Part shown: positions 4,878 to 39,430 of the stretch, piece after piece | Layout: each line of letters begins with the position of its first letter | Position numbering within the stretch: position 1 is the first letter of the stretch | Sequence record: PX123008.1 | Origin: a phage | Reading direction: 5' to 3' (one strand) | Length of the DNA stretch: 44,682 bases | Notes under the pieces: generated by a model | The model's input: the letters and a program-made list of their open reading frames with translations, nothing else | What the model was told of the DNA's origin: nothing | Database searches by the model: none | Position numbers and translations under genes: made by a program

Positions 4878-5010
4878 ACCTCCTTGCACCTTTGAGAATG
4901 CCTCGGCAGATCCAGACGAAGACTTGCTGGTTGATGTTAAGAATATGGAGTGTGGTGCTAAGCTAAGGGCGCAAGTGCTGGAGTTGCAGAAAATAATTCG
5001 GGGGCTGTGA
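4780..5010 (+). CDS. o-spanin (Rz1-like outer-membrane lipoprotein)
   Basis: 76 aa; signal peptide with lipobox LSAC; proline-rich mature part; starts inside the i-spanin ORF in the +1 frame. Confidence 0.6.
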   Translation: MLRVLTVLIAVLMLSACGSSKAPLMPLTESVYRPPCTFENASADPDEDLLVDVKNMECGAKLRAQVLELQKIIRGL

Positions 5011-5025
5011 TGGCCCCCTTTTTTG
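5000..5025 (+). terminator. rho-independent terminator
   Basis: GGGGGC-tgtgatg-GCCCCC hairpin followed by TTTTTT; the o-spanin stop codon lies in the loop. Confidence 0.65.
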
Positions 5026-5295
5026 TTAGCGCGGAATGCCGCAAATCTCGTTTAACGTCTTCACGTCCAGCGCCACCGCCGTGGACTTCGGCTTGTCCGG
5101 GTAGGGAATGAACTGTTCCACTTCAGGCCACGCCTTGATCAGCTTCTTATCGGTATTGTGCAAATCCAGCACGCCGGTAACTGTTAGTTTGAACGCGTCA
5201 TACTTCGCACGCAAATCGCGGCGGGCCTTGTCGTTACGGTCCAGGCGCTTACAGAAGTCGTGGTCCGCCGGGTAGTCTATACGACCGCGTGGCAT
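5026..5295 (-). CDS. hypothetical protein; possibly the C-terminal part of the upstream ORF, see (AT)5 finding
   Basis: ORF MPRGRIDYPADHDF...; frame junction with ORF 5277..5792 coincides with an (AT)5 tract. Confidence 0.4.
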   Translation of the reverse strand: MPRGRIDYPADHDFCKRLDRNDKARRDLRAKYDAFKLTVTGVLDLHNTDKKLIKAWPEVEQFIPYPDKPKSTAVALDVKTLNEICGIPR

Positions 5296-5792
5296 ATATA
5301 TATCGGCAGCGCTTTCCCGTCGTCGTCGACTTCGCACACTGACGCTAACAAAATTTCCTCATACCCTGGCACAATATCGCCGAGATCGGGAGACAGTTTA
5401 TTCATGTATTTATACTCCCAGTATCCGCGATGTGCTCGGAATCGGTGTCCGTCTCCGCTCAATGACACGGTACGGACGTTTCCGCCTGCGTTGATTTCGA
5501 AAGTGGCGTCGTAAACGCTGCCTATACCATATGGGTTGTCGGCGTCATGTCTATACGTCGCCTTATTGGTGTACACACAGACGCCGTATATCTGCGACGG
5601 GTCATTGCCGATTGCATAAATGCGCTCACGTAGCTCGGCGAACGTATGAATGCCTTCCGGCATACAGTCCAGCGTAATGGCGTACGCCAGATTTCGAGAG
5701 TCCATCATGATTGATTTGGCTTCGGTCGCGATTTCGTGGTCGCGCAGGATGTTAGCCAGAATCTGGTTTTTAATGTCTTTCGTCAGTCTCAT
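5277..5792 (-). CDS. hypothetical protein
   Basis: 171 aa, ATG with GAGGA RBS 8 nt upstream; no recognisable motif. Confidence 0.5.
   Translation of the reverse strand: MRLTKDIKNQILANILRDHEIATEAKSIMMDSRNLAYAITLDCMPEGIHTFAELRERIYAIGNDPSQIYGVCVYTNKATYRHDADNPYGIGSVYDATFEINAGGNVRTVSLSGDGHRFRAHRGYWEYKYMNKLSPDLGDIVPGYEEILLASVCEVDDDGKALPIYICHAVV
5294..5303. repeat. (AT)5 dinucleotide tract at the junction of two ORFs
   Basis: atatatatat read directly; removing one AT unit would fuse ORF 5277..5792 to ORF 5026..5295 in frame. Confidence 0.9.
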
Positions 5793-5874
5793 TTTTGTGT
5801 CCTCGTTGTTGGGGCTTTCGCCCCTGTTGGTTTAGTTAAACTTGATGTTGCCGCCAATAGGCTGCTTTTGTTAG

Positions 5875-6393
5875 CTACAAACGCATCGGCATGATAACAA
5901 GGAAGGCACCGCCTTTGAACAGCACACGTGTCGCCTTGTCTACTCCCTGAAATTCCAGTTTTAAGCTATCAAACTTACGGTCGAACAATTTAGCAATTTT
6001 GCAGGCGTCGGACAGGTATGCCCCGGCAAACCCTATAGCCTCCACTTTAGCGCTGTCAAAAGACGTAACTCTACGCCAGTCTGGGAATCGGCCGTCTATG
6101 ATCTCTACGGGTATGGTACCGATTAATACGTCTTTACTATCAAAGAACGCAGCGGAGGTGCCGTCTATGTTGCAATATTCGAATTTAGTAGGTAAGCGTC
6201 CTTTAATTGCTACTATTTTACTTTCACCTTCGGGAACAACCGCGGACCCGCAGAACAAGCGATGACCGTCGGTGGCCACAATGAATCCTTTCTCGTCGAA
6301 AAATACACCGTTCAGATAGTATCGCACGTCATTAGTTGCGGCGCACATCATAGCGGCTTTAAGATCAGCATAGTTAACTTTAATCATTGTCAT
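5875..6393 (-). CDS. truncated beta sliding clamp (DnaN domain II-III) homologue
   Basis: 173 aa from ATG with GAGGA RBS; motifs DVRYYLNGVFF, VATDGHRL, DGRFPDWRRV and C-terminal VIMPMRL match E. coli DnaN residues ~145-366 as recalled; no domain I. Confidence 0.7.
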   Translation of the reverse strand: MTMIKVNYADLKAAMMCAATNDVRYYLNGVFFDEKGFIVATDGHRLFCGSAVVPEGESKIVAIKGRLPTKFEYCNIDGTSAAFFDSKDVLIGTIPVEIIDGRFPDWRRVTSFDSAKVEAIGFAGAYLSDACKIAKLFDRKFDSLKLEFQGVDKATRVLFKGGAFLVIMPMRL

Positions 6394-6416
6394 TTCCTCG
6401 TTGTTGGAGTGCAACC

Positions 6417-6446
6417 AATATAGTGCAACCAATACGAGGATTGCAA
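6417..6446 (-). promoter_or_regulatory. sigma70-like promoter (TTGCAA-N18-TATATT) for the clamp-like gene, with ATTGGTTGCAC motif copies
   Basis: hexamers read directly on the minus strand; downstream leader GGTTGCACTCCAACAACGAGGA then ATG at 6393. Confidence 0.5.
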
Positions 6447-12010: not shown

Positions 12011-12327
12011 GCGGGACAGGCGGGACGTCCCGTTTTGTCCCGCACCTCTAAAACTGCATATTTACCCACTTACATTGCATAGATTAAAAGCGGGACAGGG
12101 GTGCTGTCCCGATCTGTCCCACCCCCGAAATGTGAATGTCTATTCAGTTTTCGTGCATAAAACAAACGGGACAGAAAGCGGGACAGAATGAGGCGGGACA
12201 AAGCGGGACAGCACCCCTGTCCCCGCCAGTGCTGCCGCGGGTTTTTAGCCGATCGGGACAGGCGGGACAAGCCCAGTCTTTCAGACTAGACGGGGGTCAT
12301 TGGCCCCCCTCGTCTGAGACTGAATAA
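12011..12327. repeat. iteron cluster A: ~8 direct and 4 inverted GCGGGACA copies plus a conserved ~60-bp terminal hairpin
   Basis: GGGACA at 12013, 12092, 12168, 12180, 12195, 12205, 12255, 12264; TGTCCC at 12036, 12105, 12115, 12218; terminal segment nearly identical to 39366..39430. Confidence 0.85.
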
Positions 12328-16456: not shown

Positions 16457-17252
16457 ATGTTAACGAAGAAGGTTAAAAGCGATATCGCCGCACACGTCGC
16501 GGCATGTCTGCCGGAAGAAGCCTGCGGCCTGGTTGTCATGGTGGGCCGCAAACAAGTTTTTATCCCGTGCGTTAACGTATTCGAAGACCCTACCGGTGCG
16601 CGCTCGCGTAAGGACGCGTTTACAATCAGTGATACGGCCTGGATGGATGCGGAGGAGCTCGCGTAAGGACGCGTTTACAATCAGTGATACGGCCTGGATG
16701 GATGCGGAGGATATGGGAGACGTCGTTCGCGTAGTCCACTCACACCCAGGTCAGCGCGAGTTAACCCCGTCATTGGGTGACGTCAACGGCTGCAACGGCA
16801 GCGGCGTCGTCTGGACCATCACTAACGAATATGGCGACTTCATCGAGATCGACCCGGAAGACCCGCCGCTGGTAGGCCGCCGATTTGTTCTCGGAATTAC
16901 GGATTGCTATGGCCTCGTAATGGACTGGCACAAAAAGCAGGGCGTGATTCTTCCGGACTTCCGCGTGCCGTACAACTGGTGGGAGGCAGGCGAAAACCTG
17001 TATATGGACAATTGGTATGGAGCTGGCTTCCGGGAGTGTGCGGAGAATACGCCTGGGGCGATGGTCATCATGCAGATTAGCGCGCCAGTGCCTAACCATG
17101 CCGGAATCTACCTTCCGGGCAACCAACTCCTACACCATATCTACGGCAGCTTGTCGAGCGTCGTCCCCTTCCGGGCAGGATTTTTCCGCGACAATGTGGT
17201 TAAATGGGTGCGTCACAAAGACTTACCGTGGGATATCACAGAATGGCAATGA
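16457..17252 (+). pseudogene. tail assembly protein gpK-like (MPN/JAMM + NlpC/P60) split by a 55-bp tandem duplication
   Basis: N-terminal ORF 16457..16666 (EACGL...PCVN) stops inside the repeat; the rest (VVHSHPG...TDCYG...) continues in a frame shifted by +1; removing one repeat copy restores one 247-codon ORF. Confidence 0.7.
16602..16711. repeat. perfect 55-bp tandem duplication (2 copies)
   Basis: 16602..16656 is identical to 16657..16711, read directly. Confidence 0.95.
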
Positions 17253-22539: not shown

Positions 22540-23925
22540 ATGGCGGCGGGAACATTATCCGTAACGAATAACAGCAAGGCAGTTGCAGGGGTTGACACGA
22601 CGTTCACCGCGTTTAAAGCTGGCGACTTCTTAACTCTGGTGGTGGGGCAAGTGCCTTACACCGTGGCAATCGCATCCATCGAAAGCGACACCGCGCTTAC
22701 GCTTGTGCTGCCGTTCGACGGACCCACGGCAACCGGCCTCGCGTGGGATGGCGTTAAGCGCGATACCATGTCACTGGCAACGATGGGCGTTACCGTACAG
22801 GCGCAGAAAGCACTGCGCTTGATGATTGCGGACGAAAACAACTGGCGTGCAATCTTCGGAGACGAAGAAGAAATCACGGTAACGCTGCCGAACGGGCAAG
22901 TTATGCAGGGTATGTCGTGGGGATACCTGTCGCAATTGCTGAAGGAAGTTGACCCCGTTGAAATGCGCAACCTGCAACAACAAGCCGCGGCATCTGAAGC
23001 AGCAGCGCAAGGATTTCGCGATCAGGCCAATGCTGCGAAGTTAGACGCACAAGCCGCGCGCGACGCGGCAAAGACCTCCGAGACTAACGCCGAGCAATGG
23101 GCGCAAAGCGTGAACGCCAACAACCTGCTAACAAAATCCGGCAACCTGCTAACAAAATCCGGCAACCTGGCGGGCATTACGGATTCGGCGGAGGCTCGTA
23201 ACAATCTTGGTCTGGGTCCTTTGTCTACAGCAAATGTGGTACCGGTAGAAAACGGTGGTACGGGAGTAACCAGGGCCGAGGATCTATGGCCTGTAGTTCG
23301 ACCTGTCGACGTGTTCGGAAACGTAGGTCACCTTATAGGTATTCCTAACGGTATTACACGAAATCATATCTGGCTGTGGAACACCGCAGATACACCACCT
23401 GCCGGTTGGGTTAACTACATGGAGGGGGGTTGGTTTAATGGTGTATGGCGTTTAGGTGGGGTTCGTGGCGGTAACGAGAACTTATCACATGCGCAGATTA
23501 CCGTTAATAGCGGTCAGGGTTCGGAAGCTCACTTCATGTTTTATCCTGATGGTTCCGCGCTCGCCGCAAACTGGGTGTCAACATCTGACCCACGTGTCAA
23601 GTCTCTGGTTGAGGTTATACCGGACCCTCTTGATTTGATGCGCAGTATCCGGGGTTATTCGTGGTACTACGAGCATACTGGTAGTAAGGGCTTCGGGTTC
23701 CTGTCTTCCGAGGTGAAGGTTAACTTCCGCGGGGCTGTTAAGACATTCGGTGATGCTGAGTTGCCCGATGGCACCGTAGTCCATGATGTAGAAGGTGTTG
23801 ATGTATCTGGTGTATCTGCCGCCCTCCACCATGAAGCCATTCTTGCTTTGATGGATAAAATGGAGGATATGCAGAAGGAACTGGAGGAGTTGAAAACTGC
23901 CGTAGCGGCCAAGACTAAAGCATAA
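22540..23925 (+). CDS. tail fibre protein
   Basis: ATG with GAGGA RBS 8 nt upstream (the track start at 22513 has no RBS); contains an in-frame NLLTKSG x2 repeat; 3' end duplicated. Confidence 0.65.
   Translation: MAAGTLSVTNNSKAVAGVDTTFTAFKAGDFLTLVVGQVPYTVAIASIESDTALTLVLPFDGPTATGLAWDGVKRDTMSLATMGVTVQAQKALRLMIADENNWRAIFGDEEEITVTLPNGQVMQGMSWGYLSQLLKEVDPVEMRNLQQQAAASEAAAQGFRDQANAAKLDAQAARDAAKTSETNAEQWAQSVNANNLLTKSGNLLTKSGNLAGITDSAEARNNLGLGPLSTANVVPVENGGTGVTRAEDLWPVVRPVDVFGNVGHLIGIPNGITRNHIWLWNTADTPPAGWVNYMEGGWFNGVWRLGGVRGGNENLSHAQITVNSGQGSEAHFMFYPDGSALAANWVSTSDPRVKSLVEVIPDPLDLMRSIRGYSWYYEHTGSKGFGFLSSEVKVNFRGAVKTFGDAELPDGTVVHDVEGVDVSGVSAALHHEAILALMDKMEDMQKELEELKTAVAAKTKA
23121..23162. repeat. 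21-bp in-frame tandem repeat inside the tail fibre gene
   Basis: caacctgctaacaaaatccgg twice, encoding NLLTKSG twice. Confidence 0.9.
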
Positions 23926-23981
23926 GGAGAAAGGGCCATACGGCCCAGACTAAAGCATAAGGAGAAAGGGCCATACGGCCC
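23912..23981. repeat. 35-bp tandem duplication covering the tail fibre stop codon and terminator hairpin
   Basis: agactaaagcataaggagaaagggccatacggccc twice; only the second copy is followed by T9. Confidence 0.9.
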
Positions 23982-32569: not shown

Positions 32570-33355
32570 TTAACGGCGGCGACGTTTACGTGGTGCTTCG
32601 TCTTCGTCGTCTTCGTCCTCATCTTCGTCATCGCGGGACTTGCGGCGTTTGCGAGGTTTTTCATCTTCCTCATCGTCGTCGTCATCGCGGCGCTTTGACT
32701 TTTTGGACTTACGCGGCTTGTCGTCTTCGTCATCGTCATCACGACGTTTTGACTTTTTGGACTTGCGCGGGCTTTCGTCTTCGTCATCGTTGTCCAGGTC
32801 TTCGTCGGAACATGAAGACCCGCCACCTCCGAAGGCTTCGCCGTCTTCACGGAAGCGTAAACCCAGCAAGCCAGCACCGAGTCCCTTGCCGTTGGTGTTG
32901 TTCCACGCCCAAATATCAAGGGACACGTTGCAATAACAACCGGAGTAGATCTCCTGGCCTTCAATCTCGTCGCCGTCGATGGTCAGACCTTGTTCAGTCT
33001 GCTTCTCGCCGAGTGACGTTTGAATGATAGGCTGTTTGAACGATTTGGCGTTGATATACAACATGCCTTCGAATTCTTCGGTCACTTCGTCGCGCTCGTC
33101 ACCGTCGCGGACTGCGCATTCCTTCGAATCCTGGGCGTAGTGGCGGTCCATCCACTTATCGGCATTCTTCTCGGATTTCAGCTTGTCGGTGAGCACTGCG
33201 CGTGCTGCCGCTTCCACTTTGTCCACCTGCGGATCTTCTTTATCCAGAAGAATCACGGCACGGTATGCCGGTTTTTGTCCATCCTGTTTAGGGGTGTCAC
33301 GTTCCCAGATTTTCAGGAAGCATACGCGCACATTTTTCAGGTTGACTTTAGCCAT
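32570..33355 (-). CDS. single-stranded DNA-binding protein (T7 gp2.5-like), with a repetitive charged C-terminal tail
   Basis: 261 aa from ATG 33355; N-terminal MAKVNLKNVRVCFLK recalls gp2.5-type SSBs; sits between the Cas4-like nuclease and the polymerase; tail of three ~20-aa K/R-D/E repeats ending APRKRRRR. Confidence 0.5.
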   Translation of the reverse strand: MAKVNLKNVRVCFLKIWERDTPKQDGQKPAYRAVILLDKEDPQVDKVEAAARAVLTDKLKSEKNADKWMDRHYAQDSKECAVRDGDERDEVTEEFEGMLYINAKSFKQPIIQTSLGEKQTEQGLTIDGDEIEGQEIYSGCYCNVSLDIWAWNNTNGKGLGAGLLGLRFREDGEAFGGGGSSCSDEDLDNDDEDESPRKSKKSKRRDDDDEDDKPRKSKKSKRRDDDDDEEDEKPRKRRKSRDDEDEDEDDEDEAPRKRRRR

Positions 33356-39183: not shown

Positions 39184-39250
39184 ATTTTGAGTGTTTTTAG
39201 TTGGTCGCATTGGTTGCCGTGTAGTGTGAATATAATGAATAGTTATGCAA

Positions 39251-39430
39251 TAAAACTGCATAAACTAAGCGGGACAGAAAGCGGGACAAACAAGGGGCGG
39301 GACAAAGCGGGACAGCACCCCCTGTCCCGCCCGGATGGCGCGGCCTGGAGAGGAGCGGGACAAGCGGGACAAAGCCCAGTCTTTCAGACTAGACGGGGGT
39401 CAACGGCCCCCCTCGTCTGAGACTGAATAA
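39251..39430. repeat. iteron cluster B: 6 direct and 1 inverted GCGGGACA copies plus the conserved ~60-bp terminal hairpin
   Basis: GGGACA at 39271, 39283, 39299, 39309, 39357, 39366; TGTCCC at 39323; 39366..39430 nearly identical to 12264..12327. Confidence 0.85.

Follow-up and report, generated by a model that had tools for sequence, protein, structure and literature searches.

The window, by which we mean the whole 44,682-nucleotide (nt) stretch of sequence record PX123008.1, comes from a Dhillonvirus, a siphophage of Escherichia coli, and is approximately 92–94% identical to the best-matching deposited genomes; no record at least 99% identical to it was found in the phage collection. Two overlapping minus-strand open reading frames (ORFs) of 171 and 89 amino acids (aa) meet in it at a run of five AT units, and we found that these two ORFs are one gene, nmad5, in an out-of-frame allelic state (Table 1). 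An earlier note on this DNA had placed the (AT)5 tract at the junction of two ORFs, with the upstream stop 15 nt past the tract and the downstream ORF beginning inside it in the +2 frame, and this layout was borne out. The upstream ORF ends in ...GKALPIY-ICHAVV-stop, with the TAG beginning at the 15th nt past the tract; the ATG of the downstream ORF (5295..5293) consists of the last AT unit and a G, this ORF is read in the −1/+2 frame with respect to the upstream one and overlaps it by 19 nt. The automatic ORF call lengthens the downstream ORF to a GTG at 5337 (103 aa). Deletion of one AT unit does fuse the two ORFs, as the note had proposed, to a protein which we computed at 254 aa rather than approximately 255 aa (...ALPIY-MPRGRIDYPADHDF..., junction ...PIYMPRGRIDYPADHDF...). 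No second (AT)5 exists in the window besides the tract, which is flanked by GGGAAAGCGCTGCCG...CCACGCGGTCG, and 100 dinucleotide-preserving shuffles produced none. No Shine-Dalgarno motif was seen in the 20 nt upstream of the downstream ATG.

Table 1 Features of the nmad5 locus, in window positions.
Feature	Position	Strand	Description
(AT)5 coding microsatellite	5294..5303	-	Tract ATATATATAT; out-of-frame length allele
Whole disrupted nmad5 gene	5026..5792	-	765 nt / 254 aa when one AT is removed
Upstream ORF, 171 aa	5277..5792	-	ATG start; native residues 1–165 plus frameshift tail ICHAVV, TAG; N-terminal module
Downstream ORF, 89 aa	5026..5295	-	Native residues 166–254; conserved C-terminal module
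GAGGA Shine-Dalgarno motif	5800..5804	-	7 nt upstream of the nmad5 ATG (5792..5790), read from the sequence
G+C-rich hairpin with T runs on both strands	5000..5018		Terminator-like; between the o-spanin gene (+) and nmad5 (-)
K216 codon	5143..5145	-	Residue 51 of the downstream ORF; position checked

We compared the fused sequence with protein profiles, a check which the earlier note had suggested, and found an end-to-end match to the Pfam family Nmad5 (PF18757; gathering score 27 bits), with residues 1–253 aligned to positions 1–206 of the 206-position profile (E = 5.9e−54, 183.7 bits). The 171-aa ORF alone matched positions 1–115 (E = 4.2e−19, 69.9 bits) and the 89-aa ORF alone positions 122–206 (E = 3.9e−31, 109.2 bits); the halves match complementary parts of the profile, so that a single family model is divided at the tract. 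The fused protein also matched PHROG 1965, a family without an assigned function. Relatives carry the gene annotated as one 765-nt coding sequence, in places under the name “Nmad5 domain-containing protein”. An accessory gene, nmad5 has a start signal and a terminator-like site of its own and runs antisense in the morphogenesis region, flanked on one side by the spanin genes and on the other by the head genes.

The gene was extracted from 20 relatives with complete coverage, comprising isolates and four metagenome contigs. All 20 hold it as a single open frame of 765 nt (254 aa), the difference from the window at the tract being exactly 2 nt, and a two-gene arrangement with independent starts was found in none of them. 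Four relatives (bob, SM_W22, McMelon and BEK2-2) have an (AT)4 tract, ATATATATG, encoding Ile-Tyr-Met. Most relatives have an interrupted tract: ATATATAAG, encoding Ile-Tyr-Lys, and ATATATCTY, encoding Ile-Tyr-Leu, each in several phages or contigs; ATATACATG, encoding Ile-Tyr-Met, in KS_S9 and phiEco273; and ATCTATATA, encoding Ile-Tyr-Ile, in GeorgBuechner. The codon which supplies the downstream ATG in the window is thus Met, Lys, Leu or Ile depending on the phage, and this start is therefore not conserved. Two independent overlapping genes were rejected on this ground, together with the lack of a Shine-Dalgarno motif in the stretch inspected upstream of the ATG.

Approximately 129 GenBank records match the site, and alignment spans were read from three BLAST listings showing approximately 100 of them. 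Among those listed, Opt212 alone shares the length of the window and the others are 2 nt shorter; Opt212 carries (AT)5 and, as in the window, is annotated with two overlapping genes. A literature search on Opt212 returned only ophthalmology papers. Scans of IMG/VR, the JGI metagenomes and GTDB with the tract flanks and a variable gap gave no new expanded alleles; they returned eight Dhillonvirus contigs, all unexpanded, plus chance matches in unrelated bacteria.

Truncated forms were found among the cluster members of Dhillonvirus Nmad5 proteins in public assemblies, and their tails are the exact alternative-frame readings predicted for longer tracts. These were a 178-aa protein ending in ...PIYIYATRSRRLPGGP from an (AT)6 allele (P0173; L040, ERR11503997), a 173-aa protein ending in ...PIYIYICHAVA from an (AT)8 allele (P0172; L041, ERZ1478606) and a 177-aa form ending in ...PIYIYIYIYICHAVA from an (AT)14 allele (L039, SRR36242122), the DNA of all three being reached via the 89-aa cluster representative P0204. 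Two further cases are known as proteins: P0114 with P0206, in which the 171-aa protein ends in ...PIYISHAVA and represents (AT)5 on an Ile-type allele, P0206 reading ...ADIYIPRGR in the other frame and so confirming the (AT)5 state; and P0207, an 89-aa C-module called as a protein of its own from a contig of 44,684 nt, for which the protein gives no tract length. At the DNA level the tract is therefore present at (AT)4 in bob, SM_W22, McMelon and BEK2-2, at (AT)5 in the window and Opt212, and at (AT)6, (AT)8 and (AT)14 in the three contigs above, as expected of the length-variable tract which the earlier note had envisaged.

Changes in length move the gene in and out of frame, and simulated translations agreed with the observed proteins. 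Four units gave 254 aa, seven gave 256 aa, five or eight gave 171 or 173 aa and six gave 178 aa; the simulation on the BEK2-2 gene reproduced the exact tails and lengths of P0172 and P0173, and that on the bob gene reproduced the ICHAVV tail of the window. Expansions which would keep the frame ((AT)7, (AT)10 and (AT)13; 256–260 aa) were not found among approximately 150 listed cluster members or by exact look-ups. Exact look-ups of the simulated (AT)5 and (AT)7 proteins on five Met-type backgrounds gave no entry in the collection, nor did those of the window's own ORFs and fused protein.

The expanded alleles lie on different backgrounds. The Opt212 gene is one substitution from that of bob, which is intact with (AT)4, and 28 from that of the window, and has no unique substitution; the nearest nmad5 allele to the window is that of GeorgBuechner, with 23 differences. 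The identical stretch which the window and Opt212 share around the tract is only approximately 65 nt, which is unremarkable at 3.7% divergence. The (AT)6, (AT)8 and (AT)14 alleles have BEK2-2-like backgrounds and differ from the window by 65–72 nt. Two separate (AT)4-to-(AT)5 events, one in the window and one in Opt212, are the economical reading of these differences, and the allele sequences indicate repeated, independent expansion of this site in other Dhillonviruses, the lengths reached being (AT)5, (AT)6, (AT)8 and (AT)14.

We tallied by hand approximately 165 proteins which carry the junction. Tract frameshifts numbered 7 against approximately 12 intact alleles of the Met/Ile type, and 0 among approximately 146 alleles of the Lys/Leu type (Fisher P = 9e−8 on the hand-tallied counts), for which the tract was (AT)3 in all DNA read. 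This dependence on tract type has the signature of length-dependent slippage, with a threshold between three and four units.

The expanded tract is not the only lesion in nmad5, which is a gene in flux. The C-terminal module is removed independently by a net deletion of approximately 238 nt in SM_S24 (L033), by a 268-nt deletion in L035 (SRR25542883) and by a 127-nt deletion between two GTGCGAAGT repeats in L036 (ERR10744563), and protein P0167 gives evidence of a deletion anchored in the tract itself. A run of eight A residues frameshifts codon 27 in a 44-kb contig (L037, positions approximately 1480–1495, ENA ERZ27318444; GCCAAAAAAAATC compared with GCCAAATCAATC in the window); the same protein occurs on 6 contigs, and in such alleles genes of 225–227 aa are called from Met-29/30. 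Halves of 125–126 aa occur on many contigs. The C-module is also found without the N-module or with a foreign one (P0211, P0205 and P0213), the variants L042 and L043 retaining only the C-terminal 107 aa, as does P0211 (107 aa), which occurs on 4 contigs. We considered whether losses are confined to the C-terminal part, and this was ruled out by the codon-27 frameshift and by the variants without an N-module. The breakpoints cluster near residues 148–172, and this therefore suggests that Nmad5 may consist of two separable modules.

The part which the frameshift detaches is the most constrained part of the protein. Among the 20 intact alleles the ratio of nonsynonymous to synonymous substitution rates (dN/dS) was 0.19 for residues 1–165 and 0.043 for residues 166–254, and most of the invariant columns of the family alignment fall in the downstream C-module. 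The downstream ORF of the window has itself stayed intact: compared with relatives it gave a dN of 0.015 and a dS of 0.13–0.63, a dN/dS of approximately 0.1 or lower, and of its 3 unique changes 2 are silent, with all 89 codons open. Downstream of the tract, 11–12 silent changes and no replacement change separate the (AT)14 allele from the (AT)6 and (AT)8 alleles. To judge from these substitution patterns, the out-of-frame alleles are young, or exchange frequently with in-frame ones, and are not decayed pseudogenes. A fixed frameshift pseudogene had been among the three alternatives of the earlier note; the gene is indeed frameshifted, and the decay which the term implies was not seen, there being neither secondary lesions nor relaxed selection in the downstream ORF. 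A length-variable tract with long and short alleles is the best fit of the three.

The gene has previously been studied in phages of the same genus. Escape mutants of SM_A8 and SM_S22 from the Tmn defence system carry nmad5 K216E (K296E in the longer SM_S22 annotation), reversion of the mutation restored sensitivity to Tmn, nmad5 could not be cloned and was apparently toxic, nmad5 deletion phages were viable but did not escape Tmn, and SM_S24 was still Tmn-sensitive (Yamashita et al. 2025, PMC11846954). The nmad5 of SM_S24 has no C-module. K216 is invariant in the family alignment and lies in the module which the frameshift in the window detaches. Escape thus involves the same gene and the same genus as in the window, but requires that specific missense change; since deletion of nmad5 gives no escape and SM_S24 stays sensitive, the frameshift appears to be tolerated and is not expected to mimic K216E. 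An anti-Tmn gene corresponding to ORF35 of SM_S22 was also sought in the window and was dropped, as the numbering in the paper could not be confidently matched to GenBank.

The family to which Nmad5 belongs was named from gene neighbourhoods, for example the thymidine-hypermodification cassette of M6/YuA, and a role in nucleotide or DNA modification is suggested through the name. The neighbours of the Dhillonvirus gene are head and lysis genes. Using tblastn, YuA/M6-like Pseudomonas phages, Bordetella phages and lambdoid/Stx phages were found by the C-terminal part only; in the loci inspected, from YuA (L032) and HK542 (L031), the C-module is the C-terminus of a single protein of 186–207 aa, and in Klebsiella phage VLCpiS11a (L030) the full-length match is one 232-aa protein. 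The C-module is widespread beyond DNA-hypermodifying phages, including many Stx-converting (Stx1/Stx2) phages, and in the lambdoid phage HK542 the 207-aa protein which carries it is encoded directly downstream of gene N. This wide spread sits oddly with the “nucleotide modification” label of the family. An accessory ORF of 185 aa (5875–6432, minus strand) adjoins nmad5 in the window; it matches PHROG 3007, “RusA-like resolvase” (E = 1e−56), has weak matches to sliding-clamp families and is annotated in EP23 as a DNA polymerase III beta subunit, and BF9, GeorgBuechner and UDS3lw have no gene at its position. The PADLOC models of defence-system proteins gave no match for either Nmad5 or this ORF.

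We consider it probable that replication slippage at a naturally length-polymorphic coding microsatellite produced the truncated or split nmad5 allele of the window. In some allele lineages the Ile-Tyr-Met codons (ATA TAT ATG) form an uninterrupted (AT)4, at which slipped-strand mispairing during phage DNA replication would add or remove AT units, and the window would represent the tract at (AT)5. Translation of this allele is predicted to give 165 native residues, ICHAVV and a stop, leaving the C-module (residues 166–254, including K216) uncoupled. The main product would be a truncated N-terminal fragment, and re-initiation at the ATG of the tract may yield a small amount of free C-module as well. 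Since plaque formation does not require nmad5, the allele may be tolerated, and the event was presumably recent, since the downstream reading frame is undamaged. In our view the tract marks a mutational hot spot within a gene that is useful under some conditions, and is not a proven evolved switch.

Several points weigh against this reading. The tract length of the window is known from the assembled sequence alone, and (AT)4 is short for a hypermutable repeat. The ratio of 7 out-of-frame to approximately 12 intact alleles suggests that some selection acts besides mutation; the denominator of this ratio is approximate for the Met type, because protein sequences do not separate pure (AT)4 alleles from those interrupted by TAC, as in KS_S9. 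It should also be noted that the 171-aa fragment and the 89-aa product are predicted proteins and that confidence in the structure model is only moderate near the break.

The tract might instead be a true contingency locus, a reversible, high-frequency switch between ON and OFF or long and short forms, with mixed lysates hedging against Nmad5-sensing defences or against toxicity. The repeat lies inside an ORF, is polymorphic among relatives and toggles the frame by its length; the lengths of 4, 5, 6, 8 and 14 units come from independent lineages and samples, the downstream ORF has stayed open in all out-of-frame alleles, with only silent differences there between the (AT)14 allele and the (AT)6 and (AT)8 alleles, and other alleles have a second repeat frameshift in the A8 run at codon 27. 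The link of nmad5 to the Tmn defence and its toxicity to the host (PMC11846954) would supply a reason for switching, and experiments on T2 agt and T4 rIIA have demonstrated homopolymer contingency loci which evade defences (bioRxiv 10.1101/2025.10.21.683753). However, the repeat has not been maintained across the lineage, the Lys/Leu type with its (AT)3 making up approximately 146 of the approximately 165 alleles. That no expansions which keep the frame were found among the listed cluster members or by exact look-ups also speaks against switching, a pattern which a one-way ratchet after inactivation would explain as well as cycling would, and neither deletion of nmad5 nor the C-terminal truncation of SM_S24 brings escape from Tmn. 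We therefore regard an evolved switch as unlikely, and there is a similarly small chance that natural populations of this lytic coliphage cycle between full-length Nmad5 (4, 7, 10 or 13 units) and the N-module alone or both modules made separately, which would hedge against Tmn or other defences sensing Nmad5 and against its toxicity.

Somewhat more doubtful is a split but functional gene, in which the modules would be made separately, the C-module by termination-reinitiation at the ATG of the tract, and would act apart or reassemble. An intact 89-aa module follows in frame from that ATG, the upstream stop lies 16 nt downstream of it, and the two ORFs overlap by only 19 nt. The natural variants point the same way, with the C-module nearly alone in P0211 or behind an unrelated short N-terminus in P0205 and P0213 and the N-module alone in SM_S24, P0041 and P0042, together suggesting two separable modules which meet near the clustered breakpoints. 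Against this, no Shine-Dalgarno motif was visible in the 20-nt stretch before the ATG, the ATG itself is missing in most relatives and in P0114/P0206, the (AT)5 allele of Ile type, and the Pfam model is one domain.

An error of sequencing or assembly, in which the phage is truly (AT)4 and the extra AT an artefact, we hold to be very unlikely. A frameshifted gene without secondary decay is what such an error would leave, and one feature of the window clearly resembles an artefact, namely a perfect 55-nt tandem duplication at 16602–16711 (16602–16656 being identical to 16657–16711). It breaks the gene for a minor tail protein, homologous to GeorgBuechner bas16_0022, into ORFs 16457..16666 and 16533..17252, and removal of one copy restores an ORF of 246 aa. 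As 55 nt is a default SPAdes k-mer size, the duplication is most likely an untrimmed overlap of a circular contig, left internal after rotation of the genome, and not biology. The same k-mer size would indicate short-read data, and short reads are expected to rarely mis-size a 10-nt dinucleotide run at the consensus level. Apart from nmad5 and the gene broken by the duplication, all GeorgBuechner proteins which match the window do so in a single frame, and the frameshift at the tract is therefore not part of a general sequencing noise. In addition, the same state was deposited independently for Opt212, and longer tracts, beyond base-calling error, were assembled in three other data sets.

Recoding is the least credible explanation: full-length Nmad5 could be made from (AT)5 by a +2 (= −1) tRNA hop on the AU repeat, for example with tRNA-Tyr on UAU re-pairing two bases downstream while the rare AUA stands in the A site to give PIY-MPRGR, or by transcriptional slippage, and the repeat does give identical take-off and landing codons followed by this rare codon, low-level +2 shifts being known in E. 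coli, but shifts of this kind should be rare, a different one would be required for the (AT)6 allele, the relatives are not so arranged (20/20 with one ORF) and no stimulatory structure was found (minimum free energy of −24.1 kcal/mol for the 101 nt over the tract and downstream, compared with a shuffle mean of −28.1 kcal/mol; z = +1.29). A programmed ribosomal frameshift was rejected on these last two grounds.

Other repeats were observed elsewhere in the window. Two paralogous small ORFs (approximately 54–61 aa) at 12132–12314 and 39235–39417, which match GeorgBuechner bas16_0018 and bas16_0052, each carry a degenerate 12-nt tandem repeat, CGGGACAGAAAG or AAGCGGGACAGA. Further tandem repeats lie at 23121–23169 (21 nt × 2.3, 100%), 23906–23981 (35 nt × 2.2, 97%) and 32666–32790 (54 nt × 2.3, 86%).

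In terms of annotation, the two “hypothetical proteins” of the window, which are also separate in Opt212, are better described as one frameshifted nmad5 gene. Dhillonviruses are being engineered for therapy via nmad5 and anti-Tmn, and stocks with a Met-type tract may be mixtures of nmad5 states. To date, the demonstrated cases of switching by repeats in phages are homopolymers of laboratory T-even phages, and the natural dinucleotide series of 4 to 14 units described here offers a concrete locus at which to ask whether wild phage populations hedge with such repeats. Were the tract to prove a phase-variable switch, no earlier dinucleotide contingency locus would have been described from a phage, and this one comes with a natural allele series.

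The nmad5 tract joins a known class of repeat-mediated frameshift loci in phages as a new member. The closest likeness is to the homopolymer loci of T2 agt and T4 rIIA (Gomez, Barrick & Waters, bioRxiv 10.1101/2025.10.21.683753), where slippage at a repeat in a phage ORF likewise produces frameshift alleles of a non-essential gene with ties to host defence, T2 agt being, like nmad5, labelled as a DNA-modification gene. There the repeat is a homopolymer of 6 bp or more and reversion was measured experimentally, whereas nmad5 has a dinucleotide repeat with an in-frame state of 4 units and a natural allele series, and most nmad5 alleles are without the repeat. In the Fletchervirus phages of Campylobacter, length-variable polyG tracts (G7–11) in receptor-binding protein genes are conserved across the group, and these coding repeats likewise create truncated and full-length subpopulations; they lie in host-range genes, whereas the (AT)n of nmad5 is present in a minority of alleles of a gene to which no biochemical function is assigned. 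Bacterial phase-variable loci with di- to tetranucleotide repeats, such as the TA repeats of Haemophilus hif and the mod phasevarions, usually have long selected tracts, with measured rates of change of 1e−2 to 1e−5. At these loci, too, slipped-strand mispairing at short tandem repeats toggles expression, whereas the nmad5 tract is known here through a series of sequenced alleles.

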